Shown here in pieces: positions 15,825 to 47,587 of a DNA stretch of 64,000 bases. Within the stretch, counting starts at the first letter, position 1. Each line of letters starts with the position of its first letter. The notes below the pieces were generated by a model, which was not told where the DNA came from, searched no databases, and saw only the letters and a list, made by a program, of their open reading frames with translations. The translations under genes were made by a program, and so were the position numbers. Source of the DNA: Candidatus Chisholmbacteria bacterium RIFCSPHIGHO2_01_FULL_52_32 (lineage in GTDB: Bacteria > Patescibacteriota > Microgenomatia > UBA1400 > Chisholmbacteraceae); contig MHCJ01000006.1 in the NCBI GenBank assembly GCA_001816585.1, forward strand, positions 40-64,039, read 5' to 3'.

Positions 15825-15935
15825 TACTCCCTATTTATCCTGAGCGGACTTGTCCTGAGTGACCTGTGGAGAGCCAAGCTGAACCAAATCGAAGGAGTCG
15901 AAGGACTCCATATTTATGCTGAGCGGAGTCGAAGG
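15825..15935. repeat. Interspersed element, copy A: ...atcctgagcggacttgtcctgagtgacctgtggagagccaagctgaaccaaatcgaaggagtcgaaggactcc... plus a duplicated tail.
   Basis: About 85% identical over roughly 75 bp to 33157-33235. Shares its core with segments inside nnr (26583-26628) and nrdJ (46312-46340). Confidence 0.65.
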
Positions 15936-15939
15936 ACTC

Positions 15940-17331
15940 CTAAAACAACGACATCTGAGTATCGGGCTCCGAAGCTTCTTCTCCAAAGATCTCAACCTTC
16001 CCAAAAACTCCATCGTAGCCAGGGCGGATTGAAATATTACCGTTTCGTACTTTTCGAATCGCCTCCCCTAAACGCTCTCCTTTAAACCGGGCTAATTCCT
16101 CAAGGGAAATCTGAAGCAGCACTGCAAACTCGCTTCCGAACTTTGTAACCAAAGAATGGTACTCACTAAGTACAGTATTACTTGATACACCAGAATGATA
16201 AACTTCACTTAATATCTCCAGCAGGGGAACAAGCATGACAAAAGGCGGCCGCGTTTCGTCTGACGGATGAGAAAGAGAAGTCACACCAACTGTATCCGAC
16301 TTCCGCGCGGTCGTTAAAGCGAATAACTCGTGATCGCTTAACTGGTCAACCCTGTACATCACCCCGACCGTCAGCGGTCTCCCGCAGACATGGCAGATAA
16401 CCCCTCGCTTTCGTGTCTCCTCCGGCGATTGAATAACCCCACAACTGCGATGTCCATCATAATGGTACTTCCCCTCCTCCGGATAGAATTCGATTGTAGA
16501 GGCAATCTGAAGCTTCCCCTCGTTCCTCCCCAAAAAACGTTCCGCAATCGCCCAATAAATATCGTTGTATTCAAAATTTGTCATTTGTAATTTGTCATTT
16601 GTCATTCCGTTTTTCTCCTGAAAAACGGTGGCCTCTCTTCCCAATTTCGGCCCGGAGTGGGCATCAGAGAATGACACGATCGCCCGCCTTTGAAGCTCGC
16701 TGATCCTCCAGTTCATAAGGGGGTCCGAAGAAAGACCGGTTTCCACCGCAAAAATCGATCCCGCCAAGTCCCCGAAACAGTCATCAATGGAGTCAAAGCC
16801 ACTTTTCGAGCCGTACAGACTAAACCACGGCGTCCACGCATGAGCCGGAATCACAAGACATCGCTGACTGACGGAAAACGCGATTTCTGCAATATCTCTT
16901 GCGGAAAGCCCGACAATGGGCCGGCCATCGGAGGCAAGATTACACCCCCGCTTCAAAAGCTCTGCGTTGATCCGCTCTGCTATCGCAAAGTCGGGAGCAA
17001 ACACAAGGGTATGAACCCTATGCGACTTTCCTCCCTGCGTGTAGATACTCGATATCTCCGCCGAAAGCAAAAACTTCACCTCACCCTGATCTCCTGGTCC
17101 CACCGCAACTTTTGACTTTTGACTTTCAACTTTTAACTGATAGATGCCCTCGCTCACCTCCTCAAGTTGACTTTGGATCTCCCGAAACCAAAGCGTATGC
17201 ATCCAATCTCCAGTGGCAACCAGATCAATACCCTTTCTCCTCGCCCATGACACAATTTCCGAAAGATCCATATTTTTTGAAACTGCCCGGGAATATTTTG
17301 AGTGAAGTTGAAGATCGGCGATAAGTTCCAC
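15940..17331 (-). CDS. PHP-domain (polymerase/histidinol-phosphatase-like) metal-dependent phosphoesterase.
   Basis: The N-terminal ADLQLHSKYSRA...DLVATGDWMH is a PHP signature. Two in-frame heptamer inserts: LKVESQKSKV and MTNDKLQMTNFE. Confidence 0.6.
   Translation of the reverse strand: MELIADLQLHSKYSRAVSKNMDLSEIVSWARRKGIDLVATGDWMHTLWFREIQSQLEEVSEGIYQLKVESQKSKVAVGPGDQGEVKFLLSAEISSIYTQGGKSHRVHTLVFAPDFAIAERINAELLKRGCNLASDGRPIVGLSARDIAEIAFSVSQRCLVIPAHAWTPWFSLYGSKSGFDSIDDCFGDLAGSIFAVETGLSSDPLMNWRISELQRRAIVSFSDAHSGPKLGREATVFQEKNGMTNDKLQMTNFEYNDIYWAIAERFLGRNEGKLQIASTIEFYPEEGKYHYDGHRSCGVIQSPEETRKRGVICHVCGRPLTVGVMYRVDQLSDHELFALTTARKSDTVGVTSLSHPSDETRPPFVMLVPLLEILSEVYHSGVSSNTVLSEYHSLVTKFGSEFAVLLQISLEELARFKGERLGEAIRKVRNGNISIRPGYDGVFGKVEIFGEEASEPDTQMSLF
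16576..16607. repeat. Tandem heptamer repeat (ATTTGTC/ATTTGTA), inside the PHP gene and in frame.
   Basis: atttgtcatttgtaatttgtcatttgtcattc. Confidence 0.8.
17108..17138. repeat. Tandem heptamer repeat (ACTTTTG/ACTTTCA/ACTTTTA), inside the PHP gene and in frame.
   Basis: acttttgacttttgactttcaacttttaact. Confidence 0.8.
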
Positions 17332-17382
17332 ACGTCCTCCAAACGCTGTCTATAGTATCATACAGAAGGAGGCTGGACGATC

Positions 17383-18261
17383 ATGGAAAATAAACCGTTT
17401 TTCTCAATCATCATTCCTACCTTAAACGAGGCGACCACCCTCCCGGTCCTCCTAAAAGACCTTACTAATCAGACCTGGAAGGACGTTGAAATCCTGATCG
17501 TTGATGCCAACTCGGAAGACAAAACCAACCAGAAAGCGGAATCCTTCCGAAAATATTTCGCTGGCCTCAAAATCATCATCAGCCAACAGCGAAACGTCGC
17601 CTACCAACGGAACTTAGGCGCCAAAAACGCGAAAGCAGATTGGATCATCTTCATGGACGCAGACAATCGGATTCCCCCATACTTTCTTCAAGGGGTGAAG
17701 TACCGACTTGAGGCTTTAAATCCTGACATCTTGTCAACTTGGATCCAAGCGGAAACAAGCGACACCAAAGACCAAGCGATCGCCACGATCGTGAATCTCT
17801 ATATTGAGATGCAGAAAACCACGAACAAACCCTCCGTCCTTGAGGCAATGATGTGTTTTAAAAAAGACGTGTTCCTTCGTCTTGGAGGATTTGAAACTTC
17901 AAGAAACTGGGGAGAAGGGGGTGAAATCCTCGAGAGGGCACTCCGAAAAAAGTTCCGCTTTGAAGTCGTCAGGGACCCAAAATTCACCTACTCGCTCAGA
18001 CGCTTACGCGCGCAAGGAACCTTGAAGAGCACCCGTACTGTTGCCAGACTTGAGCTTGCCCGGCTCCTATCAAAAAGGCTTCCGAAACAGAAGTTAAAAT
18101 TTCTCTACCCAATGGAAGGCGGCGCGTATTTTAAACAGCCCACCGAAAAGCAGGTCTCAAGGTTAAGAAGACTTGTCCAACGACTCTATCGCGGGACACC
18201 AGACGATAGAGAGCAGCCAAAGCACTGGTTCCTTGACCGTCTGTTTGGCAAGAAAGCATAA
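17383..18261 (+). CDS. Family 2 glycosyltransferase.
   Basis: FSIIIPTLNE...ILIVDANSED...DAD motifs (GT-A fold). Confidence 0.8.
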   Translation: MENKPFFSIIIPTLNEATTLPVLLKDLTNQTWKDVEILIVDANSEDKTNQKAESFRKYFAGLKIIISQQRNVAYQRNLGAKNAKADWIIFMDADNRIPPYFLQGVKYRLEALNPDILSTWIQAETSDTKDQAIATIVNLYIEMQKTTNKPSVLEAMMCFKKDVFLRLGGFETSRNWGEGGEILERALRKKFRFEVVRDPKFTYSLRRLRAQGTLKSTRTVARLELARLLSKRLPKQKLKFLYPMEGGAYFKQPTEKQVSRLRRLVQRLYRGTPDDREQPKHWFLDRLFGKKA

Positions 18262-18290
18262 CAGTCCTTGAAGAAAAAAAGACGATCCCT

Positions 18291-19316
18291 CTACAACAGA
18301 GTAACGATGTTGGAGAAGAACCGAGACAGGGAAAAACCGCTGATTTTGAAGAATTCAAAGAACACAAATAGGACATAGATTAACAAAAGCAAGACTCCTT
18401 CCCATCGCTCAAGCTGGTGCTTCGTGGAAGCAAGCATCCAAAACACCCCGAACACCACGACGAAGGCAACGGTCGCCAGAAGATACGGATGGAAACCCCC
18501 GTCAAGCACAATCGGATGGATGAGAGCAGTAATACCGAGAATGACGGTTGAATTAGCCACTACACTCCCCAGGAGATTCCCGTAGACCATCGCGGCTTGA
18601 TGATTTCTGACGGCTTCAACTTCAAAGGCAAATTCCGGCAATGTTGTCCCGATGGCTAAGAAAACGATGCCCATAAGAATAACAGGAATGCCTAACAACT
18701 CTGCAAGGTTGGTAGACGTCCGAACCAAAAGATCCCCGGAAAGCATGAGAATAAAAAGCCAAAAGACAAGCCAAACAAGATGCTTCCTGGTCCGCTTTTG
18801 GTTGAGCTTAAGAAGAATCCGATGCCAGAAAGGGCCCAAAGCATCCTGGTGTGATGCAAGATGCTCCGTCTTGCCGCGGAGGATCGTCATCGAATACCAA
18901 AGATAGACAACAAGTAAGATCAGCGCGTCGATTCGGGAGAGCGAGTTATCGACTAACAGAAGTAAAGGCAGGCTACCGGCCAGAAAAACCAGGAGCAGCT
19001 CGCGCCGTAAAAAATCGCCAACCACACGGATGGAGCCCCCCAGAACCGCCGCACCCCCCACGACCAATGAAATATTCGAAATGTTACTCCCCAACACGTT
19101 CCCCAGGGAAAGGGACGGTCTTCCCTCGATAGCAGAGGCAATACCGACCACAAGCTCCGGGAGGCTCGTTGCAAACGCCACGAGGAATGCCGTAAGTCCA
19201 AAAGCGCTTAGCTTGGTCATCTGTGAGAGTACCCGAAGTTCGGAAACAAGGTGGTCTGTCGCCCGAACAAGAAGGTAACCAAACAAAGCAATCAAAAGAA
19301 AATAAAGAAGAATCAC
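18291..19316 (-). CDS. Ca2+/Na+ antiporter, CaCA (YrbG-like) family.
   Basis: Two internal repeats of hydrophobic alpha-repeat motifs (GNVLGSNISNISLVVG and GTTLPEFAFEV). Confidence 0.7.
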   Translation of the reverse strand: MILLYFLLIALFGYLLVRATDHLVSELRVLSQMTKLSAFGLTAFLVAFATSLPELVVGIASAIEGRPSLSLGNVLGSNISNISLVVGGAAVLGGSIRVVGDFLRRELLLVFLAGSLPLLLLVDNSLSRIDALILLVVYLWYSMTILRGKTEHLASHQDALGPFWHRILLKLNQKRTRKHLVWLVFWLFILMLSGDLLVRTSTNLAELLGIPVILMGIVFLAIGTTLPEFAFEVEAVRNHQAAMVYGNLLGSVVANSTVILGITALIHPIVLDGGFHPYLLATVAFVVVFGVFWMLASTKHQLERWEGVLLLLIYVLFVFFEFFKISGFSLSRFFSNIVTLL

Positions 19317-21954: not shown

Positions 21955-22095
21955 AACTTCCAAAGGAGAGCGCGGAACAAATTTCGCAGGTCGCATCGGC
22001 CAGTCCGCCAGCTGGCGGACTGGCTAGCATCCCGAACACGAAAAGCCGACCAAAACCGAACCTTGTGCGACCAAGAAATTTCCGTTAAACGATCT
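21955..22095. repeat. Intergenic element R1 of about 140 bp, with a perfect 10-bp-stem palindrome ccagtccgccagctggcggactgg.
   Basis: Shares aaaggagagcgcggaacaaatttcgc...ggccagtccgccagctggcggactgg...gcgaccaagaaatttccgtt with the copy at 63535-63675. Confidence 0.6.
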
Positions 22096-22113: not shown

Positions 22114-23880
22114 CTACTTGCCCTGCAACTGGTAAAGCGTGCTCACTTCTGCCATTGTCGTTGCCTGCCCGGGACCTTTATCATCGCGGAAGCGTACGAG
22201 CCTTGGAAACCGCAAAGCGAGCCCGGCGGAGTGTACCGGAGAGCGAGTGATGTTATCAGCCGCAATCTCAACCACAAGTGAAGGACGGGTCCAAATATCT
22301 GGCGCAAGAGTCTTCCCGATGTCTCCGTACTCCTTCGGCTTATCCGAAACAGCCAAACGATCAGCCCGAAGCCTCAGCTCTTTCCATTGTTCATCCGAAA
22401 GTCCGGTACCGATTTTGGAAATGGTGACAAAGTGCCCGCCTTTCGGAATCCCAACCAAAAAACCTCCGATGCCAAAACTCGCCCTTTTCCCCCGACCGCG
22501 ATAATAGCCCATCACGACGCAATCTAACGTATCGGAAAGCCCGGCAGTTCTCTCCTCAGCTTCCTTGTACTTCACCCAACTCCACCCACGTCTGCCCGGA
22601 GAGTATGGGGCGTTCCACTTTTTAACCACCGCTCCTTCTAGCCCCGCCGTAAGTTGCTTGGCATGAAACTGACGAAGCACGTTCGGATCTTCGGTCACGA
22701 TGCGCTCGGTCTTCATTAACACTTTCCCTCCAGCAAGAGTCTGCTCAAGAAGGGCGGCCCGATTGGAAAGAGGCAGATGAAGGAGGCTCCTTCCGTCCTT
22801 ATAAAGAATGTCAAAAACGAAAAACCGCAAAGGGACTTTCGCTGCTGCTTCGAGAATCGCGTGCTTCCGCTTTCTGGTGATGATCTCTTGAAACGGGAGA
22901 ATTTTACCGGAAGAAGTATCATACGAAACGGCCTCACTATCCAAAATAACTTCACGGGCAGACAGATCAGCGGTAATCCTCCCAAGCTCCGGAAACATAA
23001 ACGACACTTCCTCCAAATTCCGCGTAAACGCCCTCAAGAACACTCCCTTCGCTTTGCCCTTTGCGCTTTGCCCTTTGCGCTTTGCCCAGTGTATCTGCAC
23101 CCGCTGTCCGTCGTATTTTGGTTCCACCGCCACCCTGCCCATTTTCGCAATCATTTCTTGAGGAGATTTTAGCCGCTGGCAGAGTGCCGGCATAACGGGA
23201 ACACCGAGCTTCGCCGCAATACCCGAAAGGCCTGAAACGCCCTTTTTCTTAAAAAGCGCCGCAATCGCTCCGATATCAGCCCGCACGAAATAGGCCTGCT
23301 CAAGCCGCGGCCGCAAAGTTTTCGTTCCCGTCTTCATCCACGAAAGCGCGTCCAAAATAGTCACATCCGAAAACCCCAGTCGAAGTCGACCCAACACCAT
23401 CCGGACAACATATTTGCAGCTTACTGAATCGAGTTCATGAAGAAGCAAAACAAGTCCTTCTATCTTCCGCTGTTGACTCCCCTCCCCGTTTTCTTCCGCA
23501 ATCTTCCGCAATCTCCCATAGACCTCTAACATGGACAGTTTTGAGCTTCGAGTTGTAGCTATAACTTTTAACTTTTCACTTTTAACTTTTAACTTTTCTG
23601 CCACTTCCCCCAAATCCCCGACCTCCTTATACGTTTCCCTGACCCGATCTTCAGAAACGTTAAAAGCCTGCCCGATCACCCGAATGATCATCTTTTCTGC
23701 CAGCTGAAATTCTAATGGCTCGTAAAGCGGCGCCAATCTTCCCAAGGAAAGATAACAGAGAATAGCAATTTCCGTACTGGAAGCAGAGGAAAATAAATCA
23801 GCCAGAACCTCAGTGATTGCAAGTCGTGAGGTTATCCCTTCGAGTTTGGCAAAAAAGGAAGACAGTGTTGCAAAAGTCAT
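22114..23880 (-). CDS. ATP-dependent DNA ligase.
   Basis: Motif I KYDGQR (adenylation lysine) and an OB-fold C-terminus. Contains two in-frame repeat inserts: SAKGKAKG and KLKVKSEKLKV. Confidence 0.85.
   Translation of the reverse strand: MTFATLSSFFAKLEGITSRLAITEVLADLFSSASSTEIAILCYLSLGRLAPLYEPLEFQLAEKMIIRVIGQAFNVSEDRVRETYKEVGDLGEVAEKLKVKSEKLKVIATTRSSKLSMLEVYGRLRKIAEENGEGSQQRKIEGLVLLLHELDSVSCKYVVRMVLGRLRLGFSDVTILDALSWMKTGTKTLRPRLEQAYFVRADIGAIAALFKKKGVSGLSGIAAKLGVPVMPALCQRLKSPQEMIAKMGRVAVEPKYDGQRVQIHWAKRKGQSAKGKAKGVFLRAFTRNLEEVSFMFPELGRITADLSAREVILDSEAVSYDTSSGKILPFQEIITRKRKHAILEAAAKVPLRFFVFDILYKDGRSLLHLPLSNRAALLEQTLAGGKVLMKTERIVTEDPNVLRQFHAKQLTAGLEGAVVKKWNAPYSPGRRGWSWVKYKEAEERTAGLSDTLDCVVMGYYRGRGKRASFGIGGFLVGIPKGGHFVTISKIGTGLSDEQWKELRLRADRLAVSDKPKEYGDIGKTLAPDIWTRPSLVVEIAADNITRSPVHSAGLALRFPRLVRFRDDKGPGQATTMAEVSTLYQLQGK
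23052..23086. repeat. Tandem heptamer repeat (CTTTGCC/CTTTGCG)x5, inside the ligase gene and in frame. Encodes an AKGKAKG-type peptide.
   Basis: ctttgccctttgcgctttgccctttgcgctttgcc. Confidence 0.85.
23563..23598. repeat. Tandem heptamer repeat (AACTTTT/CACTTTT), inside the ligase gene and in frame.
   Basis: aacttttaacttttcacttttaacttttaacttttc. Confidence 0.85.
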
Positions 23881-26211: not shown

Positions 26212-27237
26212 TCAATACGCCAACACTTCCTTCATCACCGCTGGAACTTCCGCCACTAAATCACCCGCATTAAAGTACGGTCCGACACGCCGAAACAACC
26301 GATCCCCCGCTTGCTTGTTGATAAAGCTCCCCGCCTTCGCCGCCAAAAACGCCTCGTCCTTACAATACAGCGCACCGACCAGTCCCGCCAACACATCTCC
26401 CGTTCCTCCTTTCGTCATCCCCTCATTCCCCCCTTCCACTACCACACACTCCTCTCCCCAACAAATAATATCTTTTTTCCCCTTCAACAACACCGTCACT
26501 CCCCCAAGATATTTGGAAACCTCCCCAACCAAATGGGCCAACTGTCCATCGTTAATTTTTAATTTTGAACTGTAATTTTGCTTGCCCTGAGCGAACTTGT
26601 CCTGAGCCTCGTCGAAGGAGTCGAAGGGAACTTTAAATATTAAACTTTTAATTTTACTCAGCAGTCTCCGAAACTCTCCCCCATGCGGCGTAACGATCAT
26701 GTTATCATTGAAAAGTCCCGGATCAACTTCCTGCAATGCCCCTCCGTCAATCACCCACCGCTTACCGGGAAACTTCTGCAAAAGCCCGTTTACGATCTCC
26801 TCCGTAGGTTGCTCCCCTACCTCCAATCCCTCCCTTCGCGGCATCCCCGGCCCGATCACCACACAATCATCTTCCAAAATATATTCTTCAACCCTCTCCC
26901 ACGGCACCACAATCCCGTTCCAAAACTTCTCCTTCGTTCTCTTCCGCACAAGGTCATTATTTTCCATTGCCGGCGAAGAGAAATGAACCAAGTCAACAAT
27001 CCGACTTGCCACATCCGCGGTCCAAAAGATCGAAGAATGAAAAAGCTTGCTCCCTCCGATAACCAGAAGCCTCCCATTCTGACCCTTATGGGAATCTGCT
27101 GGAGGACGGTAAAGTCCCTGAAGATCTGCTGGTCCAATAGTTTTCATGACAACTTCAAAAAAACCGCTTCTCCCCCCATTATACCCCAAGGCCATTCTCT
27201 GGCCGCCTTTGGTATAATTCACGCCATGCATCGCCAA
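26212..27237 (-). CDS. ADP-dependent (S)-NAD(P)H-hydrate dehydratase domain protein (Nnr C-terminal / carbohydrate-kinase-like).
   Basis: ...LLVIGGS... and GGTGDVLAG motifs. Contains a composite insert of about 110 bp in frame, KIKSLIFKVPFDSFDEAQDKFAQGKQNYSSKLKIN. Confidence 0.65.
   Translation of the reverse strand: MAMHGVNYTKGGQRMALGYNGGRSGFFEVVMKTIGPADLQGLYRPPADSHKGQNGRLLVIGGSKLFHSSIFWTADVASRIVDLVHFSSPAMENNDLVRKRTKEKFWNGIVVPWERVEEYILEDDCVVIGPGMPRREGLEVGEQPTEEIVNGLLQKFPGKRWVIDGGALQEVDPGLFNDNMIVTPHGGEFRRLLSKIKSLIFKVPFDSFDEAQDKFAQGKQNYSSKLKINDGQLAHLVGEVSKYLGGVTVLLKGKKDIICWGEECVVVEGGNEGMTKGGTGDVLAGLVGALYCKDEAFLAAKAGSFINKQAGDRLFRRVGPYFNAGDLVAEVPAVMKEVLAY
26553..26662. repeat. Composite insert inside nnr: AT-rich heptamer repeats flanking a copy of the cctgagcgaa...gtcgaaggagtcgaagg element core.
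   Basis: gttaattttttaattttgaactgtaattttg, then cttgccctgagcgaacttgtcctgagcctcgtcgaaggagtcgaagggaac, then tttaaatattaaacttttaattttac. Read in frame on the minus strand. Confidence 0.75.
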
Positions 27238-28254: not shown

Positions 28255-29384
28255 TCTTTCTGGCTTTGGTGAAGCTCCACAACCTCAATCCCCTTTGTCT
28301 GTCCAACCAGGTGAAGATCGGTCGTGGTCATAATCGTCTGCTGATGCGGAAGAATTCTTAACACCAAGGCCCGATGGTCATGATCAAGCTCCGACAGGAT
28401 ATCATCTAAAAGAAGTACCGGCCGTTCCCCGATTGTCTGTGACACATAGGAAAGCTCCGCAAGCTTCAACCACAGTACTGCCAATCGCTGCTCTCCTCTT
28501 GAACCATACAGCGCAAGATCCCGACCTCTACTTGTTACTTGTCTCTTGTCACTTGTTACTATCTGAAAGTCATCTTTATGCGGCCCAACCAAGGTATATC
28601 CGACCGCCACTTCCTGCTCAGCGTACTGCAAAAGTCTACTCGCAGAAACAACGGAGCTGTCGTAGGTCACCCGAAAGGAATCAATCTCTGCATCAAAACG
28701 GTTGATCGCTTCAACAAATGCCATTCGCTTTTGCGTCAAGACTTGGCCGTGTTTGATAATCAGCTGGTCCCAGAAGGCAAGGTGGGTTCGCGCAGTCCCT
28801 TCCTCCCGAATGGCATCGAGTAGCCTATTGCGTCGCACCAATGCCTTCTCGTAGGAAACCAAGCTCCGCCGATACTCGCGATCAATCTGCGATAAAACCA
28901 CATCCAAGAAAGCCCGTCGTACGGATGGACTGCCGAGGATAAGCTCCAAATCTTCAGGCCGGAATACCACGACGACCAACCGCCCGACATAATCGGAATA
29001 ACGCTTGGGAACTTCATCGATGCGATAGCGTCGTTTTGCAACCCGTTTTCCCTGAAGTTCCCCTCTTGTCAAAAGCACCTCAAGCTCAACCGAAGGGCCG
29101 GTATCGCCATCAGTCGCGGGTAATAATTGCTCAACCTTGCCTGTCACACGCGCCAACTCCTTGGTAAAAAGGATCATCTCCTCGGTCTTCTGTGCCCGAA
29201 AACTCCGCCCCGTGGCTAAAAGAGAGATTGCCTCCAAAACATTGGTCTTCCCCATGGCATTATTCCCTACAAGAAGGGTAGTGTTCGTTCCGAAACGAAA
29301 GGTCTTCCTTTCGTAACTGCGGAAGTTTTCTAAGGTAAGCGACAAGAGCTGCATAGTGGAGAAATATAGGAAACGGAAAGCCAA
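28251..29384 (-). CDS. recF: DNA replication and repair protein RecF.
   Basis: Walker A GNNAMGKTN, an SMC-like signature region, and Walker B LLLDD. An in-frame insert VTSDKRQVTSRG is encoded by a heptamer repeat. Confidence 0.85.
   Translation of the reverse strand: MAFRFLYFSTMQLLSLTLENFRSYERKTFRFGTNTTLLVGNNAMGKTNVLEAISLLATGRSFRAQKTEEMILFTKELARVTGKVEQLLPATDGDTGPSVELEVLLTRGELQGKRVAKRRYRIDEVPKRYSDYVGRLVVVVFRPEDLELILGSPSVRRAFLDVVLSQIDREYRRSLVSYEKALVRRNRLLDAIREEGTARTHLAFWDQLIIKHGQVLTQKRMAFVEAINRFDAEIDSFRVTYDSSVVSASRLLQYAEQEVAVGYTLVGPHKDDFQIVTSDKRQVTSRGRDLALYGSRGEQRLAVLWLKLAELSYVSQTIGERPVLLLDDILSELDHDHRALVLRILPHQQTIMTTTDLHLVGQTKGIEVVELHQSQKD
28529..28560. repeat. Tandem heptamer repeat (ACTTGTT/ACTTGTC-like), inside recF and in frame.
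   Basis: tacttgttacttgtctcttgtcacttgttact. Confidence 0.8.
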
Positions 29385-30926: not shown

Positions 30927-32069
30927 CTACACGACCTTCCCTTTCGTCACGCACTGCTCCACAAATTCCCTCATCTCCCGCTTGAAGCGCTCCTTAGAAA
31001 ACCTCTGCGCCTCTTTCTGTATCTCTTCAACTTTAAACTTTTCACTTTGAACTTTGAACTTTCTTATCGCCCCAACCAACCCCTCAACGGTATAGTCATC
31101 GAAAAAGACACCGGTCTTACCCTCGACAACCGACTCAACGTACCCTCCGCCGCGATAGGCCACCACCGGCGTCCCGTAGGCCATCGCTTCAACCGGCGTA
31201 ATTCCAAAATCCTCGTCCTCTGCCGTGGCAAGAAATGCCCGAGCTCCGGCGTACAGCTCGGCCAAACGCTCATCGGCTACTTCCCCGAGAAACTCAATAG
31301 TATCCCCTGCCATCTGCCGTAAACGCCTTCCCGCCGACCCCCACCCTGCCGGTTTGCCGACGATCTTCAGGGATATACGCATCCGGTTCGCGGCTTCGAC
31401 GGCAAGCTCCAGCCCCTTCCCACCCACAATCCTCGAAACAACCAGATAATAGTCTCTACCATCTTGTTTCTTGTTTCTTGTTACATGTTTCTGTATCTCA
31501 ACCGGCGGATAAATCACCGTTGCCTCTTTGCGGTAGAACTTCTCAATCCGCTTCGCAACATTCTTCGAATTCGCTACAAAAAAATCCACTCGTTGGGCCG
31601 CCCGAAAATCGTACATTCTCAGGAAATGTCCGACAATCATCCCGTACACCCGCACCGGCCAATATCGGCGCCACTCAACCGAAGTTTGATACCCGTAGAG
31701 GTACCTTGGTGGCGTGTGGCAGTAACAAACCTCAACCGTATTCGGCCCCCTTCGAAATCCTTTCGTGATATACCAGTTTGCACTTGAGATCACAACATCA
31801 TAGTTTGAATAATTAAACTGCCTCCATACCAAAGGGGAAAGAAACCGTAAAGGGCTGGCAAGTCGCGAGGCAAAGGGAATCCAATGGAACCAAGAAACTC
31901 GAATATCTTTATCTCGGAAGCGCTCCCAAGCGGAAGAGTTTCGTAAGTAGTACGCCGTATAAATCGGCGCTTCCTGCCAGATTTCACTCAAGGCCAGAAG
32001 TACCCGCTCCGCCCCACCAAATTCATGAAGATAGTCATGAACCAGTGCAACACGCAACGTATCTCTCAT
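30927..32069 (-). CDS. Glycosyltransferase, GT-B fold (GT4-like).
   Basis: The C-terminal E-x7-E region (EDEDFGITPVEAMAYGTPVV) is typical of GT4. Two in-frame heptamer inserts: KFKVQSEKFKV and TRNKKQD. Confidence 0.8.
   Translation of the reverse strand: MRDTLRVALVHDYLHEFGGAERVLLALSEIWQEAPIYTAYYLRNSSAWERFRDKDIRVSWFHWIPFASRLASPLRFLSPLVWRQFNYSNYDVVISSANWYITKGFRRGPNTVEVCYCHTPPRYLYGYQTSVEWRRYWPVRVYGMIVGHFLRMYDFRAAQRVDFFVANSKNVAKRIEKFYRKEATVIYPPVEIQKHVTRNKKQDGRDYYLVVSRIVGGKGLELAVEAANRMRISLKIVGKPAGWGSAGRRLRQMAGDTIEFLGEVADERLAELYAGARAFLATAEDEDFGITPVEAMAYGTPVVAYRGGGYVESVVEGKTGVFFDDYTVEGLVGAIRKFKVQSEKFKVEEIQKEAQRFSKERFKREMREFVEQCVTKGKVV
31030..31064. repeat. Tandem heptamer repeat (ACTTTRA/ACTTTTC-like), inside the GT4 gene and in frame.
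   Basis: actttaaacttttcactttgaactttgaactttc. Confidence 0.8.
31462..31492. repeat. Tandem heptamer repeat (TCTTGTT), inside the GT4 gene and in frame.
   Basis: tcttgtttcttgtttcttgttacatgtttc. Confidence 0.8.
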
Positions 32070-32092: not shown

Positions 32093-33061
32093 CTAAAACA
32101 TCTCCTCCTGCACCATCTGCTCAAACGAATCGTCAGGAAGACGGGGGATTAAGGTGGTAAATTCGAGCGCTCGGAACTTCTCGACAGCCTTTTCCTTATC
32201 GTAATCCGAAACAACACACTTCCCAAGATCAAGCACGATGGGAGCATCGGTCGCAATCGTAGCAAGCTTCATGGAAAGATGAGCAGACTCCTTTCCATCG
32301 GCCAATTTCTGAAACACCGCTTCACCAAATTTCGTTTTGATTTCTTTAAGGTGGTGATAAACCCTGCCCAAGTCACCGTAGGTTTGAATAAGCGTTGTTG
32401 CTGTCTTTGGTCCGATGCCCTTTACCCCGGGAATTTCATCTGATGAATCTCCGGCAAGTGCTTTAAAATCGGTCAGCTGCTGCGGAGTCAGCCCATACCG
32501 CTCCATCACGACATCGACATCCCAAAGCGTTGCTGCCTGTTTTCCCCTTCCGGGAGTGTAGACCACCACGCGTTTCCCCTCCACGAGTTGCAGAGCATCG
32601 CGATCCCCTGTTACAATCACAACTTCAATATCATTTTTTTTCCCTCTGCCTTTCACCCTTTGCCCTTTGCCGTGAGCCGCTTGTTTCACGAGCGTTGCAA
32701 TCACATCATCCGCTTCATACCCTTCCAGCGAAAAAATTGGGATATTGAGGATCGACACGATCTCCCAAACCCGTTCCTGTTGACTCGCAAGGTCGGCCGG
32801 CATCTCTGGCCGATGGGCCTTATAGCCCTTGTACTCCACATGGCGAAAGGTCGGTTTGTCCCGATCGAAGCAAACCACAAGGTGGGAAGGCGAAAGCTCG
32901 CGAATGACAGAAAGAAGAATGTTGGTAAATCCATAGACGGCGTTAATCAATTCCCCTTTTCTCGTCGTCAGGGGCGGGTACGCATGAAAGGCCCGGAATA
33001 GCACCGAATGTCCATCAATCAGAACCAGTCGCTTTTGTTGATCGGATTTTCCTCGATTCAT
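32093..33061 (-). CDS. Stand-alone 5'-3' exonuclease (DNA polymerase I N-terminal-domain-like, FEN family).
   Basis: ...LVLIDGHSVLFRAFHA... plus an H3TH region (GIGPKTA). An in-frame insert HGKGQRVKGRGKK is encoded by a CTTTGCC-type repeat at 32648-32672. Confidence 0.8.
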   Translation of the reverse strand: MNRGKSDQQKRLVLIDGHSVLFRAFHAYPPLTTRKGELINAVYGFTNILLSVIRELSPSHLVVCFDRDKPTFRHVEYKGYKAHRPEMPADLASQQERVWEIVSILNIPIFSLEGYEADDVIATLVKQAAHGKGQRVKGRGKKNDIEVVIVTGDRDALQLVEGKRVVVYTPGRGKQAATLWDVDVVMERYGLTPQQLTDFKALAGDSSDEIPGVKGIGPKTATTLIQTYGDLGRVYHHLKEIKTKFGEAVFQKLADGKESAHLSMKLATIATDAPIVLDLGKCVVSDYDKEKAVEKFRALEFTTLIPRLPDDSFEQMVQEEMF

Positions 33062-33122: not shown

Positions 33123-33156
33123 CAAGTATTGCCGAAAATCTCCATTTCTTATTTAA

Positions 33157-33235
33157 TCCTGAGCGAACGCGTCTTGAGTGACCTGTGGTGAGCGAAGTCG
33201 AACCAAATCGAAGGAGTCGAAGGACTATTCACCCT
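33157..33235. repeat. Interspersed element, copy B: aatcctgagcgaacgcgtcttgagtgacctgtggtgagcgaagtcgaaccaaatcgaaggagtcgaaggact.
   Basis: About 85% identical to 15838-15912. Confidence 0.65.
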
Positions 33236-37170: not shown

Positions 37171-37176
37171 GCTCTG

Positions 37177-37249
37177 TGCTAGGGGTGGGATTCGAACCCA
37201 CGACCTATCGCTTATGAAACGACCGCTCTGCCACTGAGCTACCCTAGCA
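37177..37249 (-). tRNA. tRNA with anticodon CAU, either elongator Met or Ile2/lysidine. They cannot be distinguished by eye.
   Basis: Minus-strand cloverleaf: GCUAGGG / UA / GCUC-AGUGGCAGA-GAGC / GUCGU-UUCAUAA-GCGAU / AGGUC / GUGGG-UUCGAAU-CCCAC / CCCUAGC-A. Confidence 0.85.
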
Positions 37250-37295: not shown

Positions 37296-37578
37296 CTTGA
37301 GTGTTGCGGGGCCAGGAGTTGAACCTGGTCTGCGAGATTATGCGTGTTGTTTTCTCCAGTTTCCTGGAGTACCGGACTATGTCTTAACCCGTTAGATAAT
37401 CATAATCACATATCTAATGGGTTCCTGGCGTATAGTCTCTACGGATTCCCATTCAAGGTCTTTCCTCGGCGTTGCCGTACTCAGTTCATGAGGGTAGGTT
37501 TCGCCGATATAGCCAGGTGCACTCCATCAATTACTCGATAGAGGGCCCATCATTGAGCCTCACGTGCTACCGTACACT
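37296..37578 (-). tRNA. Initiator tRNA-fMet (CAU) interrupted by a group I intron in the anticodon loop.
   Basis: 5' exon CGCGGGGUAGUGUACGGUAGCACGUGAGGCU. 3' exon CAUAAUCUCGCAGACCAGGUUCAACUCCUGGCCCCGCAA. The C1 x A72 mismatch and the CGCGGGG...CCCCGCAA acceptor are initiator hallmarks (compare E. coli tRNAfMet CGCGGGG...CCCCCGCAACCA). The spliced anticodon loop is CUCAUAA. Confidence 0.7.
37335..37547 (-). ncRNA. Group I intron of about 213 nt inserted between U33 and C34 of tRNA-fMet.
   Basis: The 5' exon ends in U (the P1 U-G pair) and the intron ends in G. The core elements resemble the R and S elements as I recall them from group I introns such as Tetrahymena's (written from memory): GUAGAGACUAUACG against an R-like ucAGAGACUAnA, and UAAGACAUAGUCCGG against an S-like AAGAUAUAGUCC. 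An IGS-like GGGCCCUC can pair with the exon end GAGGCU. Confidence 0.65.
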
Positions 37579-37734
37579 ACCCCGCGCGTTGTCAAAACGA
37601 GCCAATTTTACCAAATTCCTCTGGAAAAATCAACCTAAAAAAACGTCTCTCTCTAAACGCATTTCAATTGGACCAAGAAGCATGAAGTATTGAGTAAGAA
37701 GGAAATAAACTCGCTTTGGGGATCTCTTCTTGAA

Positions 37735-37920
37735 TACCCTTTGAACGCAGCTACTCGAGAACGACGTGAGCGAATACCATTAAGATGTCATCGACTGTCC
37801 GACGAAGGGTTTATCCCGAGAAGTTTGATGACAAAGGATGAGCGAACGAGCTCCCGAGAGACCGTTCACTGGGGCGTCATTCTTTGGTTACTTTCTTAGA
37901 CGAGTAAGAAAGTAATAAAT
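37735..37920. repeat. Copy C3 of the roughly 190-bp repeat family.
   Basis: accctttgaacgcagctactcgagaacgacgtgagcgaat...cgttcactggggcgtcattctttggttactttcttagacgagtaagaaagtaat. Confidence 0.55.
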
Positions 37921-38036
37921 CTGCTTGGGAAAAAGAATAAAAACTAATTTGGGAAACTAAACAAGAGACAGCATCCCTTAAGAACAACAATCTCGCCCTC
38001 CAGCAGTCAGAGTCAAACTCACGACGAGTTTGGGTG

Positions 38037-39593: not shown

Positions 39594-39651
39594 CCTCACT
39601 ATAACACACAATCAAAGCGAGCAAAAGAAGGAAAAGAAATAAACACGATTG

Positions 39652-39723
39652 TGCGCCCGCTTGGATTCGAACCAAGGACATCTACTTTATAAGAGTAGCG
39701 CTCTGCCGCTGAGCTACGGGCGC
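39652..39723 (-). tRNA. tRNA-Ile with anticodon UAU (reads AUA).
   Basis: Minus-strand cloverleaf: GCGCCCG / UA / GCUC-AGCGGCAGA-GC / CUACU-CUUAUAA-AGUAG / AUGUC / CUUGG-UUCGAAU-CCAAG / CGGGCGC-A. Positions 34-36 are UAU. Confidence 0.75.
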
Positions 39724-43425: not shown

Positions 43426-44025
43426 TCAAAAATCCAAGCCCTTCACGGCTTTCCTGCCCCGATCATACGGATGCTTGATTTTTCGCATCTCGGTCACCAG
43501 ATCCGCAAGCTCCACAATTTTTGGATGTGCACCTCTTCCTGTCAACACCAAATGTGTCTTCTCCCTATCAGAAATTAGGTCAATTAGAGCACTTAGGTCA
43601 ATTAAGCCGTCAGAGACGGCGTTATTAACCTCATCCAAAATCAGCATATCAACCTGTCCTACCAGCTCCTTTGCTTTCCGAAGTGCCGCCTTCGCCGCTT
43701 TCTTATGCTCATTCTCCCCCGCCCGATCCACAACCACCCCACCGCCAGCAATCGGAGCGGTTTTGATCTGCCTTCCTCTCTGATTCATAATTCCTGATTC
43801 ATAATTCGTGATTCTAAAACCCACACCCATTGGAAATACCTTGAAGTTAGGAAATTGATCCGCTAATCGATACTCGGAAACATCCCAGTCTCTGCTCTTG
43901 TACCAACAAACCATCACAACCGTCATTCCGGAGAGTGCCGCCCGCACCCCTACTCCCAACGCAGCAGAAGTTTTCCCCTTTCCGTTCCCTGTGAATACGT
44001 AAACAAGTCCTTTTTGAATAGTCAT
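43426..44025 (-). CDS. Cob(I)yrinic acid a,c-diamide (corrinoid) adenosyltransferase, CobA/BtuR type.
   Basis: P-loop GNGKGKTSAALG... and a CobA-type N-terminus. Contains an in-frame 14-nt x2 tandem duplication (RITNYESGIMNQ). Confidence 0.7.
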   Translation of the reverse strand: MTIQKGLVYVFTGNGKGKTSAALGVGVRAALSGMTVVMVCWYKSRDWDVSEYRLADQFPNFKVFPMGVGFRITNYESGIMNQRGRQIKTAPIAGGGVVVDRAGENEHKKAAKAALRKAKELVGQVDMLILDEVNNAVSDGLIDLSALIDLISDREKTHLVLTGRGAHPKIVELADLVTEMRKIKHPYDRGRKAVKGLDF

Positions 44026-44112
44026 TCTAAACCCTAGACGCTAAACCCTAAACGCTACTGACAATTGTTGCATTTTTCTCCACTTATCGTTGCATCCAGA
44101 CGAAAAGTGCTT

Positions 44113-44517
44113 CTATTTGTCCCTCAACCGTCTCTGGGCCAGCCGAAGGATGGCTCCGATTCGGACATCTCCGCCATCGAAAAACCGCCGCACGTCATCG
44201 CTGTACTTGGTAATCCAATCCGACAATGCCTCAGGCGTTTCCTTTGCTAAATATTCCACAACCTGTTGACAGGAGATGACCGTTTTTTTCGTTAATGGCG
44301 TACCATCGTTAGGTCGTACTATTCCCATGGCATCAAGTCCCTGCGACATAAGGACTTGTTCAACCGCTCTCCGTCGTGCATCCTCAATACCTCGCCGTGG
44401 TCCTTCCCGCTCCCCGAAGTAGTGATTCACCAATCCGGAAAAGAGCTCTTCGGGAGATAATGGCTCTTGGACAGTTCGGTCTCGACTTATAGAAAGCTCA
44501 TCTCTTGCTTCTGTCAT
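44113..44517 (-). CDS. Hypothetical protein.
   Basis: 134-aa ORF. Confidence 0.35.
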   Translation of the reverse strand: MTEARDELSISRDRTVQEPLSPEELFSGLVNHYFGEREGPRRGIEDARRRAVEQVLMSQGLDAMGIVRPNDGTPLTKKTVISCQQVVEYLAKETPEALSDWITKYSDDVRRFFDGGDVRIGAILRLAQRRLRDK

Positions 44518-44567
44518 CGTTGTTGATTATATCGTTTATAAGTAGACAAACCTTTCGATGTCCCTCG

Positions 44568-45182
44568 TTAACTCAAATATCCCGTCTTCTCAAACACAAT
44601 CCTCGGAACATCACGTTTAAGCGTAAATCCATGTTTCCGTAGCAATGTTTGAAGAACCACAAGCGGCAGTCCCACGACATTCGTAAAGCTTCCGCGAACG
44701 TCAGAAACAAATCCCTTTGCCCCCATCTGGATCGCATACCCTCCCCCTTTATCAAGCGGTTCACCCGTTGCCACGTAATCGTTGATCTCCTCATCAGACA
44801 AAGTTCGGAACGTGACAGCCGTTTCCTCCGCCGCCGACACGCTCTTTTTTGTCAAGGCATCAACCACCGCTATCCCGGTGTACACCGCATGTGTCTTCCC
44901 GGAAAGCTTTTTTAAAATCCGCACCGCATCCCTTTCATCCTTCGGCTTCCCAATAGTTTCCCCACCAACAGAAACAACGGTATCCGCTCCAATAACGAGT
45001 CCCTCCGAACGCATCTCAGCAACGAAACGGGCTTTCAAAAGCGAAAGTTTGAAAACGAGCTTTCGGGGATCTCTCAGGGAAATTTTCCGCTCGTCAAAAT
45101 AGGAAGGGACGACAGCAAATGGAACTCCCAGCCAAGATAAAAGCTCGCGCCGACGTTCTGATGACGAAGCTAAAATAAGCAT
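44568..45182 (-). CDS. maf: Maf-family nucleoside-triphosphate pyrophosphatase.
   Basis: MLILASSSERRRELL...GADTVV...GKP motifs. Confidence 0.8.
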   Translation of the reverse strand: MLILASSSERRRELLSWLGVPFAVVPSYFDERKISLRDPRKLVFKLSLLKARFVAEMRSEGLVIGADTVVSVGGETIGKPKDERDAVRILKKLSGKTHAVYTGIAVVDALTKKSVSAAEETAVTFRTLSDEEINDYVATGEPLDKGGGYAIQMGAKGFVSDVRGSFTNVVGLPLVVLQTLLRKHGFTLKRDVPRIVFEKTGYLS

Positions 45183-45271
45183 AGTCGGTGGATAGTATTC
45201 GAGAGAAGTATAACAGGACCTAAGAAATCCGCAGGAAAGCTGCAGGAAGGAAAACCTCCGAAACAGCGACC

Positions 45272-47587
45272 CTACACTTCACAAACGCTGTACCCGCACA
45301 GCTGGCACTTTGAACAACCCTCGGTAAACGACATCGGTCCGCCGCATTCCGGACACTTGCCCCCTTCCGTCTCACCCACCCCAAAAGAGGCCGCCCGTAC
45401 CGCAAGCGGTGTGACAGAAAGTTTGCTCTGAATCCGAACACTCTTCGATTCCTTCTCAAGGATCTGCACCGACTTGCTTTTATCCCGATAGATCGTGATC
45501 CCTTTACACCCCATCTTCCAGGCTAACCGATAGGCCTTTTCGACATCCTCGATCACTGCCGATTCCGGAAAGTTGATCGTCTTGGAAACCGCATTATCGG
45601 TGTATTCCTGAAACGCCCCCTGCATTCGCACATGCCATTCTGGAGAAATATCATGGGCAGTCCGGAAAACATCCTTTATCCACTGTGGAATACCCAAAAC
45701 GGAGGTAACGCTCCCCGTTTTTGAGACTTCATGAAGGAGAGGTTCAATTGCGCTCCGCTCACCGTTTCCAACCGCACCAGCCAGCGCCTGTTCAAAAGAA
45801 GTGTTCATATACGTCAACCCTTCCTGATCTACAACGTTTTTCACAAATGAAAGAGCAAAGATCGGCTCGATCCCGGATGAGCAATCGGCAACCATGCTGA
45901 TCGTCCCTGTGGGGGCTATGGTCGTGACGGCAACATTCCGCACTTTCACTCGCTTCCCCAAATGCGGATGCTTTCGTGCAAAGTCGCTCTTCTCCCATAG
46001 CGGGAACGCACCCTTCTCCGCAGCAATCCTCGCGCTTTCATCCCATCCGATCCTCTGAATGAACTGCGCCACTTTCTTTGCCAAACGAACAGCTTCCTCG
46101 CTGTCGTATCGGACACGAAGCGAAACTAATAAATCCGCCCATCCCATCACCCCGAGGCCAATCCGACGGACATTATGTGCCATGGCGCTGATTTGAGGAA
46201 TGGGATAAAAACTCGCATCAATCCCGTCATCCAAGAACCGTACCGCTATTCGCACGACCTCCTCCAACCGCTTCCAATCAATGAGGTCTTCTGTTTTACC
46301 CTTTGCCCTTTGCCCGCTTGTCCTGAGCGAAGTCGAAGGATTGCCCTTTGCCTTTTTAACAAACTTCCCCAAATTAACAGACCCTAAGTTGCACACGTCA
46401 AACGGATGAAGCGGTTGTTCCCCGCAAACATTGGTTGCCGTAATAGGCCCAAGAGCCTTAAGAAGCGGGTTATCTCGATTGATCGCATCAAGATAAATCA
46501 TTCCCGGATCGCCGGTTTTCCATGCCAAAGCAACAGCCTGGTCAAACACCGTCCGCGCCTTCGTTCGCCGTACGACCGCGCCCGTACGCGGATTCACCAA
46601 ATCCCAATGACCATCCTTCTCAACCGCTCCCATGAACGCATCACTCGCCCCCACCGAAATATTGAAGTTGCCAATTTCCCCTTCCTGCGTCTTGCAGGTG
46701 ATAAATTCAAAAATATCCGGGTGGTCGGCATTCAGGATGCCCATGTTAGCCCCGCGGTGGCGCCCTCCAAGCATCACGATCTCCGTCGCCGCATCAAACG
46801 CCTTCATAAACGAAACGGGCCCTGAGGCAAATCCGCCGCCACCGACCGCATCTCCGTTCGGTCGAAGCTTGGAAAAATTGTAACCAGTCCCCCCACCCGA
46901 CTGATGAATGAGTGCTGTCCACTTCACCGCATCAAAAATTGCCTCCATGTCATCCTCAACCGGTAACACGAAGCAATTTGCGAGTAGCCCCCGTTTTTGC
47001 CCGGCTCCCCGAAAGTAACAACCTGCCGGAACAAAAGAAAACGTGCTCATTATCTCGCTAAATTTTTGCTCCCAAGCCTTACGCTGACGCTTCTCGACTG
47101 CGGAAACACAAGCAGCCACTCGCTCCACCGCTTGTCGGGGCGTTTCAACCACATTCCCCCGTTCATCTTTGAGAAGATAACGCCTGGCCATTGCCTTGAG
47201 AGCATTGACGGACATCCCGAGGTCATCCTCAACGCCCAACACGTTCCGCACTGTCCGCAGCTCCGCTTGTCGTTGTCGGAAGAGGATGTACGCCTTCGCC
47301 GTACGGTAGTGAGACCCCGCCATCAATACCTGCTCTACGATATCCTGCACCTGCTCAACAGTCGGAATCACCTTTCTCGCCCCTCGAAGCCCTGGCGAAG
47401 TGGGGCCATTGGTTCGCCGGAGAAGTTCAATCACAATACTCGTCAGCCGCTTCGCTTCAATTTCCCCGAACTCGCCGGTTACAGCCGAAGATTTTAAGAT
47501 CGCAATGGTGATCTTGGCGGGATCAAACGCTACCACCCCTCCATCGCGCTTTCTGATCTGCTTAATGGCGAAAGCGTTATCTGCCAT
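45272..47587 (-). CDS. nrdJ: Class II (adenosylcobalamin-dependent) ribonucleotide reductase, paralog 1, with an N-terminal ATP-cone and C-terminal Zn-ribbon.
   Basis: ATP-cone (IRKRDGGVVAFDPAKI), a catalytic core with NLGSVNL, the PTGTIS motif, and a C-terminal CPECGG...C..C..C. An in-frame insert AKGNPSTSLRTSGQRAKGK matches the interspersed repeat core. Confidence 0.85.
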   Translation of the reverse strand: MADNAFAIKQIRKRDGGVVAFDPAKITIAILKSSAVTGEFGEIEAKRLTSIVIELLRRTNGPTSPGLRGARKVIPTVEQVQDIVEQVLMAGSHYRTAKAYILFRQRQAELRTVRNVLGVEDDLGMSVNALKAMARRYLLKDERGNVVETPRQAVERVAACVSAVEKRQRKAWEQKFSEIMSTFSFVPAGCYFRGAGQKRGLLANCFVLPVEDDMEAIFDAVKWTALIHQSGGGTGYNFSKLRPNGDAVGGGGFASGPVSFMKAFDAATEIVMLGGRHRGANMGILNADHPDIFEFITCKTQEGEIGNFNISVGASDAFMGAVEKDGHWDLVNPRTGAVVRRTKARTVFDQAVALAWKTGDPGMIYLDAINRDNPLLKALGPITATNVCGEQPLHPFDVCNLGSVNLGKFVKKAKGNPSTSLRTSGQRAKGKTEDLIDWKRLEEVVRIAVRFLDDGIDASFYPIPQISAMAHNVRRIGLGVMGWADLLVSLRVRYDSEEAVRLAKKVAQFIQRIGWDESARIAAEKGAFPLWEKSDFARKHPHLGKRVKVRNVAVTTIAPTGTISMVADCSSGIEPIFALSFVKNVVDQEGLTYMNTSFEQALAGAVGNGERSAIEPLLHEVSKTGSVTSVLGIPQWIKDVFRTAHDISPEWHVRMQGAFQEYTDNAVSKTINFPESAVIEDVEKAYRLAWKMGCKGITIYRDKSKSVQILEKESKSVRIQSKLSVTPLAVRAASFGVGETEGGKCPECGGPMSFTEGCSKCQLCGYSVCEV
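46297..46352. repeat. In-frame insert inside nrdJ paralog 1: CTTTGCC heptamers flanking the cctgagcgaagtcgaagga element core.
   Basis: ccctttgccctttgcccgcttgtcctgagcgaagtcgaaggattgccctttgcc. Confidence 0.75.

Follow-up and report, generated by a model that had tools for sequence, protein, structure and literature searches.

A 24-nt tagged hairpin module in housekeeping genes of a Candidatus Chisholmbacteria genome: a probable minimal mobile repeat with a candidate link to Slx1-like GIY-YIG nucleases

Very small hairpin repeats are the kind of bacterial DNA to which the module described here belongs, and among them it most resembles the small dispersed repeats (SDRs) of cyanobacteria and the repetitive extragenic palindromic sequences (REPs) with their inverted doublets (REPINs). 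The module lies in several copies in a 64,000-nt stretch of contig MHCJ01000006.1 (hereafter the window, to which all coordinates refer) from Candidatus Chisholmbacteria bacterium RIFCSPHIGHO2_01_FULL_52_32, a member of the candidate phyla radiation (CPR). Its repeat unit is 24 nt long, a 4-nt 5' tag followed by the 20-nt hairpin TCCTGAGC-GNA-GTCGAAGGA. SDR1-8 of the Nostocaceae, known from the work of Elhai et al. in 2008, are reportedly 21-27 nt long, in some cases hairpins and apparently mobile; they are also said to insert precisely at short sites (SDR5 inside HIP1), to be nested and to lie among heptameric repeats. Compared by description only, the module shares with them its 24-nt size, its nesting, its heptamer context, its precise insertion and the lack of an encoded protein. 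To our knowledge, neither in-frame insertion into housekeeping proteins nor a link to GIY-YIG genes is part of the SDR description. PMC5861425 reports SDRs from Nostocaceae only, whereas the module occurs in a CPR bacterium and in about 18 phyla.

Together with the REP-associated tyrosine transposase (RAYT) genes, REPINs provide the described case of a small nuclease gene flanked by repeats on which it presumably acts (PMC3116915, PMC3733652). The module shares with REPs and REPINs such a gene between its presumed target repeats, as well as a short imperfect hairpin with a conserved tetranucleotide, the occurrence as solo units and inverted doublets, and a high copy number. It differs in that the flanked gene encodes a GIY-YIG protein of the UPF0213 family and not an HUH tyrosine transposase, in its tags (GTCA or CTTG, as opposed to GTAG or CGTC in REPs; PMC3733652), and in a core that is identical across phyla, with copies nested and inside genes, not extragenic as in REPs. 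As in MITEs (miniature inverted-repeat transposable elements), gene-less inverted doublets of the module have their ends and subterminal sequence in common with a longer, nuclease-encoding form, and it is by this reasoning that MITEs are tied to insertion sequences. Unlike MITEs, the module comes without target-site duplication, its smallest mobile form would be a single 24-nt arm and not a pair of inverted repeats (although doublets in other taxa do have inverted arms), and the linked protein belongs to no known transposase family. Rickettsia palindromic elements (RPEs) are about 100-150 bp long, as far as is known confined to Rickettsia, and presumably unrelated to the module in sequence. 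The initial annotation of the window, made without database searches, had called the repeat RPE-like, and the functional part of that comparison stands: both are palindromic repeats that sit in coding genes, leave the frame open, add a peptide and are read in different frames, the resemblance being one of frame-neutral insertion into proteins. Kinship does not follow, the module being 24 nt long (72 nt in its largest, nested form), self-nesting, mostly intergenic and pan-bacterial. In the literature searched, which is incomplete, we found no description of the module sequence, of its peptides or of a partnership between GIY-YIG genes and repeats, and the module is probably novel. We lean, not strongly, towards reading it as a very small non-autonomous mobile module whose best candidate mobilizer is an Slx1-like UPF0213 GIY-YIG nuclease.

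The evidence that carries this reading begins with two host genes, listed here with their inserts and the repeats around them.

26212..27195, minus strand: host gene nnr, NAD(P)H-hydrate dehydratase of the NnrD type (Pfam Carb_kinase)
26552..26656, plus strand: AT-rich period-7 arrays flanking the nnr insert left and right
26581..26628, plus strand: 48-nt double nest in nnr, outer module CTTGCCCTGAGCGAA...GTCGAAGGG, inner module CTTGTCCTGAGCCTCGTCGAAGGA
45272..47587, minus strand: host gene nrdJ paralog 1, class II ribonucleotide reductase (RNR) with ATP-cone (Pfam)
46295..46351, plus strand: CCCTTTG heptamer array, split by the nrdJ insertion
46317..46340, plus strand: single consensus module CTTG followed by TCCTGAGCGAAGTCGAAGGA in nrdJ paralog 1, encoding PSTSLRTS

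On the gene strand, the nnr insert encodes PFDSFDEAQDKFAQGK; the nrdJ insert, the cleanest copy in the window, is read as ...NPSTSLRTSGQ... in another frame. Both genic copies had been recognized initially, as had the heptamer repeats that flank them, and each does lie within period-7 arrays. Homologs of the two genes come from organisms named Microgenomates, Chisholmbacteria or Patescibacteria, which marks the host as a Microgenomates-like CPR bacterium. At the protein level, the four closest nnr orthologs (74-79% amino acid identity, MAFFT) and all other aligned sequences lack exactly 16 residues. At the DNA level, the nearest ortholog (76% nucleotide identity) reads ...TTTAAAGTT/CAAAATTACAGT... 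where the window has 48 additional nt; the junction of the empty site is ...AAAGTT/CAAAAT..., the boundary of the insert is ambiguous by at most 1 nt, and there is no target-site duplication. For nrdJ, ortholog P0123 lacks the 8 amino acids of the insert; its DNA (73% nucleotide identity) has (GTGCAAA)4 unbroken, and the equivalent array of the window is longer by exactly 24 nt, again without duplication at the empty site. Judged from these filled and empty sites, the 24- and 48-nt segments are true insertions and not chance similarity, precise and free of duplication, and the proposal that the element enters a gene without killing it is borne out. A TTG repeat is seen at some CTTG-tagged copies, but target-site duplication as a rule was rejected, as there is none at nnr or at nested sites.

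The nrdJ insert sits in a loop that is hypervariable among orthologs; in ortholog P0132 the same site reads LPFDQLRARQA, which resembles a related module in another frame, and on these alignments the site is an insertion hotspot. Around the nnr insert, the heptamer-derived segment is missing from more distant orthologs too. Translated directly, the unit is free of stops in five of its six frames, the only stop being a TGA in plus frame 2, in agreement with the initial description of an element open in several frames, and all three frames of the strand read by the module-carrying genes (nnr, nrdJ) are open. Host genes are kept open because 24 nt amount to eight codons and five of the six frames are stop-free. 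Only insertions in tolerant surface loops were likely kept.

Across the 64-kb window there are about 13 modules at 7-8 loci, on the plus strand throughout, and 3 or 4 of these loci lie inside open reading frames (ORFs), in keeping with an element interspersed in genic and intergenic DNA. The pattern CCTGAGC-N(0-60)-TCGAAGG gave seven matches at six places (two overlapping), all on the plus strand, against a shuffle expectation of 0.05 for gaps of 0-30 and 0.00 for gaps of 30-60. A structure-aware scan, whose background was about five weak matches per shuffle, none of them consensus-like, added the units at 649-672, 8456-8479 and 15913-15936 as well as the 23-nt variant at 967-989. The copies other than those in nnr and nrdJ are as follows.

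649..672, plus strand: single 24-nt module CCTG followed by CCCTGAGCTTTGTCGAAGGG, a CCC/GGG stem variant
967..989, plus strand: 23-nt variant GAAG followed by TCCTGAGCATATCGAAGGA, in the same open frame as 649..672
8456..8479, plus strand: intergenic module variant GTAG followed by TCCCGAGCAATGTCGAGGGG, the T4-A17 pair changed to C-G
15834..15905, plus strand: 72-nt composite of three modules, loop in loop, directly downstream of the minus-strand gene 15940-17331
15913..15936, plus strand: solo outer-type module TTTA followed by TGCTGAGCGGAGTCGAAGGA
33153..33224, plus strand: another triple nest of 72 nt, 66 nt downstream of the stop codon of ftsH, inner arms GGT/ACC

The first two lie within a long minus-strand open frame (annotated initially as a GT2 gene), where the module at 649..672 is read ...PSTKLRAG.... 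They had been taken for miniature copies at 651-680 and 971-990; they are real, but the former is a full unit and the latter a 23-nt variant which, one base below unit length, may be decayed. Likewise, the size of 70-90 bp first given to the element does not hold: one unit measures 24 nt, three nested units make up each long copy (72 nt), and two make up the copy in nnr (48 nt). In the composite at 15834..15905, the outer module consists of 15834-15848 and 15897-15905, the middle module of 15849-15862 and 15887-15896, and the inner module, with GGA/ACC arms, of 15863-15886. Insertion into a module loop can be followed within the window itself: the solo module at 15913..15936 and its flanks repeat, directly and almost identically, the outer module at 15834 minus the 48-nt nested insert, so that the sequence reads ACTCCCTATTTATCCTGAGCGGA/48 nt/GTCGAAGGACTCC and then directly ACTCCATATTTATGCTGAGCGGA/GTCGAAGGACTCC. 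The flanks at 15826-15915 and 15905-15946 are near-identical, and the 48-nt insert is present in the first alone, between GCGGA and GTCG; on this pair, too, insertion is precise and duplication-free. The long copies had been described as near-identical; aligned over 74 nt, 15834-15907 and 33153-33226 have an identity of 88%, which extends through each of the three nest levels. Both 72-nt composites have idiosyncratic variants in common at each level, and therefore the whole composite, of which the window holds a second copy by this alignment, was most likely copied as a single piece.

Scans of sequence collections gave listed matches only, which makes the taxonomic distribution qualitative; the counts across taxa given from here on hold among the matches listed. 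The exact 20-mer occurs at at least 120 loci in one-genome-per-species GTDB contigs, where about one would be expected by chance. The phyla number about 18, including four CPR lineages, and among them are Bacteroidota, Alpha- and Gammaproteobacteria, Acidobacteriota, Verrucomicrobiota, Planctomycetota, Chloroflexota, Bacillota, Myxococcota, Desulfobacterota, Gemmatimonadota, Fibrobacterota, Eremiobacterota and KSB1; by these matches the distribution is wide. No cyanobacteria are among the 120 GTDB 20-mer matches listed. The module is absent from E. coli genomes, which rules out a fragment of a universal gene such as rRNA. On Sphingomonas megaplasmids there are up to 27 matching places per replicon, all unannotated. 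The alternative raised with the initial annotation, that only a few copies exist and that the genic matches are due to chance, does not agree with these data, since copies abound and those in genes match exactly. In IMG/VR, matches to a module pattern of 15 specified bases are many but, by a rough estimate, near the chance rate, and hence carry no information on viral carriers.

Positions -4 to -1 on the left flank are conserved as the tag, [G/C]TCA or C[C/T]TG: it is CTTG or CCTG in the window, and GTCA or CTCA in many other taxa. Inverted doublets are found in many taxa (e.g., loci L136, L153, L175, L176 and L198). The module is mostly intergenic, with 27% of units in long open frames vs 71% of random positions; still, dozens of units lie within such frames, in either orientation (37 antisense, 33 same). 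Relative to GC skew, orientation is likewise unbiased (103 vs 106 over 209 units), which rules out a replication-linked strand asymmetry. Because neither skew nor ORF orientation is biased across taxa, the all-plus-strand pattern of the window (7-8 of 7-8 loci) may be local. In metagenomes, the CTTG-tagged form recurs in three contexts. The first is nesting, with both half-units flanking a unit in 8 of 278 cases vs 0 of 273 control flanks; the second is the tip of an unrelated hairpin or palindrome, with a flanking stem of at least 5 bp in 23 of 132 cases vs 4.6 expected; and the third is the interior of period-7 arrays. Five metagenomic loci (L246, L312, L314, L348 and L358) have conserved flanks, CAAGG before the unit and TCGACATC after it, in long open frames read ...DVDPSTALRTSLA...; they represent either one protein family with an old insertion or a longer variant of the element.

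Since two composites lie just downstream of genes and all window copies have one orientation relative to transcription, a non-mobile functional RNA or DNA signal (a terminator, an mRNA stabilizer or a protein-binding site) deserves consideration, one that would arise repeatedly by selection or local slippage and whose matches in genes would be incidental. REPs act in 3' untranslated regions, according to a preprint (bioRxiv 10.64898/2026.03.23.713779). We regard such a signal as very improbable. The clean presence or absence of 24 and 48 nt inside conserved genes argues strongly against it; the nesting, the random orientation relative to the enclosing ORF across taxa and the lack of an Rfam family match also speak against it. 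An Rfam scan of the window at gathering thresholds returned one group I intron and two tRNAs and nothing else, and neither a permissive scan of 15700-16050 nor a scan of 18 loci from other phyla returned anything at the modules. RNA and DNA folds of the units and composites are no better than those of shuffled sequence, and the composites lack a T-run; a terminator or energetically stable hairpin is ruled out on these grounds.

Evidence for the hairpin comes from its arms. The 20 nt can be written by parts as TCCT-GAGC-GNA-GTCGA-AGGA, and around the core TGAGC-NNN-[AG]TCGAA, in 1.7 Mb of DNA surrounding the matches, the non-consensus arm triplets are nearly all Watson-Crick complementary: CCC/GGG 11 times, TGC/GCA six, CAC/GTG five, GTC/GAC twice, and CAT/ATG, CGG/CCG, GGC/GCC, TAC/GTA and TGG/CCA once each. 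Window variants include GGT/ACC arms, a C4-G17 pair and, in the middle nested units, T8-A12 instead of C8-G12. Because the arms covary as Watson-Crick pairs, the hairpin is taken to be real, and covariation of this kind is good evidence for it at the sequence level. Of the check for a conserved secondary structure suggested with the initial annotation, this part came out positive; an excess of folding stability was not found. The interior of the module is nearly invariant and its center is 3 nt long. Where the search pattern left the center free, GNA was found in most units, mostly as GAA, followed by GCA, GGA and GTA; nested insertions are placed in this central triplet or at its edge. The motif C-GNA-G is that of the unusually stable DNA minihairpins of the d(GCGAAGC) type, and the center of the module resembles their GNA triloop. 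The minihairpin is a structural motif and not a genetic element, and its relevance to the module may be suggested by analogy only. The fold that we infer from covariation and structural chemistry is compact and non-canonical: it would comprise four Watson-Crick pairs, tandem sheared G.A pairs, G7-C14, a bulged T13, C8-G12 and a GNA triloop.

An architecture of a 4-nt tag and an imperfect hairpin of about 20 nt is REP-like, inverted doublets such as those in L136, L153, L175, L176 and L198 are REPIN-like, and insertion without target-site duplication is as in IS200/IS605. The module could hence be a REP-type element whose bulged hairpin and tag are recognized by an HUH tyrosine transposase (RAYT or IS200/IS605 TnpA), which we consider quite unlikely. 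No Y1 transposase is encoded in the 64-kb window according to Pfam, and no Y1 family was seen among the recurrent neighbors in 1.7 Mb, where representative sequences were inspected by eye and not by HMM. The tags are not GTAG or CGTC, the two tags of the REP superfamily (PMC3733652). Moreover, the module is free of GC-skew bias (103 vs 106), unlike IS200/IS605, which targets the lagging strand. As far as is known, REPs are lineage-specific and extragenic, whereas the core of the module is identical across phyla and also occurs inside genes.

When 5,848 neighboring ORFs were clustered, the recurrent families were generic and abundant, save one small GIY-YIG cluster. In Hyphomonas atlantica (L129), a Spartobacteria metagenome-assembled genome (MAG; L212) and Flavobacterium (L230), the unit lies 5-20 nt from the start of a GIY-YIG gene, and further copies of the module follow downstream of the gene. 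These loci belong to Alphaproteobacteria, Verrucomicrobiota and Bacteroidota, respectively; in all three phyla, extended module copies in inverted orientation bracket the UPF0213 gene, and on gene neighborhood the module is thus coupled to UPF0213 there. Homologs of the L212 protein were found in six further, independent Chthoniobacterales neighborhoods, and in five of the six the gene, of about 100 amino acids, is bracketed by inverted extended units of 27-45 nt (e.g., with GTCATCCTGAGCTTGCCGAAGGACCTCCAATATCCTTCC upstream and the reverse complement of it downstream); the copies in the sixth (L363) are all degenerate. In L365 and L366, gene-less doublets stand beside the GIY-YIG gene and have termini and subterminal sequence in common with the gene-carrying ones. 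The linked proteins are 25-42% identical to each other, while the 20-mer is identical. They match PDB 1ZG2 and 1YWL, both UPF0213, which have been placed in a standalone bacterial Slx1-like branch with no role beyond predicted repair (PMC1564403).

The GIY-YIG gene of L303, from the CTTG-selected set, is flanked by a different, GTCA-tagged hairpin, which hints at cognate pairs of enzyme and hairpin. This second hairpin, GTCATTCC[C/T]GCG-nAA-GC[G/A]GGAATCC, is widespread; it flanks the UPF0213 GIY-YIG gene in L303 at 3150-3780, and in L296, L343 and L361 its loop hosts 24-nt module insertions, which suggests a superfamily of GTCA-tagged hairpins. In Flavobacterium soyae (L198, 700-1550), a short array is formed by two UPF0213 GIY-YIG paralogs in alternation with tRNA or tRNA-like genes.

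In the reading that we lean towards, the hairpin would extrude in single-stranded or cruciform DNA as a compact fold, and a structure-specific nuclease would recognize it together with the tag and cut at the tag and at hairpin tips. Host ligation or repair would then paste a copy into another nicked hairpin tip or into a slipped repeat. The best candidate for the nuclease, inferred as it is, would be the standalone Slx1-like UPF0213 GIY-YIG protein, by analogy with RAYT genes flanked by REPINs and with insertion sequence (IS) transposase genes flanked by their MITE-defining repeats. Solo 24-mers and doublets without the gene would be derivatives mobilized in trans, and selection would remove all but the frame-neutral insertions in tolerant loops.

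Several observations weigh against this reading. In nearest-neighbor folding, neither the unit nor the composites showed excess stability (z from -1.5 to +1.5). Within the 64-kb window, neither Pfam (about 50 ORFs) nor jackhmmer returned a nuclease or transposase candidate; the DNA-processing genes identified there by Pfam are an XerC/D-like recombinase, an ATP-dependent DNA ligase, a FEN-like 5'-3' exonuclease, Fpg and RecF. The copies linked to GIY-YIG genes are tagged GTCA or CTCA, and no CTTG- or CCTG-tagged solo or nested module stands beside a GIY-YIG gene among the matches listed. E. coli encodes the UPF0213 protein YhbQ yet is without the module, and therefore any pairing of enzyme and hairpin must be specific to subfamilies. 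GIY-YIG nucleases cut DNA, and we know of none that joins it. Finally, the GIY-YIG gene could be a homing parasite of the repeats.

This last possibility forms an explanation of its own, which we consider rather unlikely: the modules would be mobile by another route, perhaps the repair of breaks or templated patching where hairpin tips are fragile or heptamer arrays slip, perhaps another enzyme, and the GIY-YIG genes would be free-standing parasites akin to homing endonucleases that use doublets as landing sites and homology arms, as IS elements and introns target REPs. It accords with the preference of insertions for hairpin tips and repeat arrays, both known to be fragile, with the ready-made homology that the flanking arms offer, with the absence of a GIY-YIG gene from the window and from beside CTTG-tagged units among the matches listed, and with a group II intron between two inverted modules. 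The intron, complete and located about 8 nt after the first module, was found in a Gammaproteobacteria MAG (L145, 2705-4722), and because of it module doublets seem to be places where other selfish elements land. The same explanation leaves unaccounted for a 20-mer that is identical across about 18 phyla amid variable surroundings, and insert lengths of exactly 24, 48 and 72 nt with a conserved tag. Furthermore, the subterminal sequence common to doublets with and without the gene is the usual signature of deletion derivatives.

Period-7 arrays are a frequent feature of the window in their own right. About 35 tandem arrays of 3-7 copies each were counted, one per about 1.8 kb, each with its own heptamer and all pyrimidine-rich on the plus strand; examples are given below.

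4464-4494, 10694-10723, 14488-14509, 16576-16606, 23052-23087: period-7 arrays
23562-23597, 28529-28560, 31029-31062, 32638-32671, 43780-43814: period-7 arrays

Many of them lie within housekeeping genes, namely those for glutamate dehydrogenase, Lgt, Pth, an ATP-dependent DNA ligase, RecF, a GT1 glycosyltransferase, a 5'-3' exonuclease and CobA as well as nrdJ. The loops that they fill at the nnr and nrdJ sites vary among orthologs, and similar period-7 arrays flank the module in other phyla.

Other repeats and genes of the window are noted here for completeness. A second repeat family of about 200 nt has 3-4 copies (7380-7640, 11470-11730, 12440-12700 and 37700-37960), with CCCCTTTGAACGCAGCTACTCAAGA...GACCGTTCACTGGGGC... 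as its conserved core, GGTTACTTTCTT...AAGAAAGTAAC as its terminal hairpin and no Rfam family match; one copy adjoins a group I intron. The intron, at 37353-37565 on the minus strand (Rfam, 82.7 bits), is not obviously inside any annotated gene and lies about 100 nt from an intact tRNA-Met at 37176-37248, also on the minus strand. A 65-nt repeat at 21959-22023 and 63537-63601, 92% identical, ends in the perfect 24-nt palindrome CCAGTCCGCCAGCTGGCGGACTGG. The tRNA-Ile at 39651-39723 (minus strand) has a genomically encoded TAT anticodon. At 45272-53335, three tandem class II RNR paralogs, two of them with ATP-cones, are followed by nrdR, all on the minus strand; a triple class II RNR is an unusual redundancy for a small CPR genome, and the same tandem arrangement is found on the ortholog contig L242.

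More tentatively, and in our view doubtfully, the module may be the minimal form of an unrecognized pan-bacterial kind of mobile DNA in which standalone Slx1-like nucleases of the UPF0213 family cut and disseminate tagged hairpins. If true, this would constitute a third partnership of nuclease and repeat beside IS-MITE and RAYT-REPIN, and it would give the UPF0213 family a function. It would also explain why the peptides FDFAQDK, PSTSLRTS and LSEVEG occur in hypothetical and real proteins of many phyla, and it might also account for the period-7 arrays accompanying the module.

If the narrower reading that we lean towards is correct, a protein-less unit of 24 nt with a single hairpin can spread within genomes, nest in itself and be common to most bacterial phyla. 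In the streamlined genomes of CPR bacteria, the inserts illustrate one concrete way for essential proteins to gain loops, eight residues each time. The Slx1-like GIY-YIG nucleases of the UPF0213 family, which are very common and have solved structures and no assigned role, would become a testable enzyme candidate. In MAGs, modules and heptamers may give rise to spurious ORFs, broken short-read assemblies and an inflated apparent divergence of proteins.

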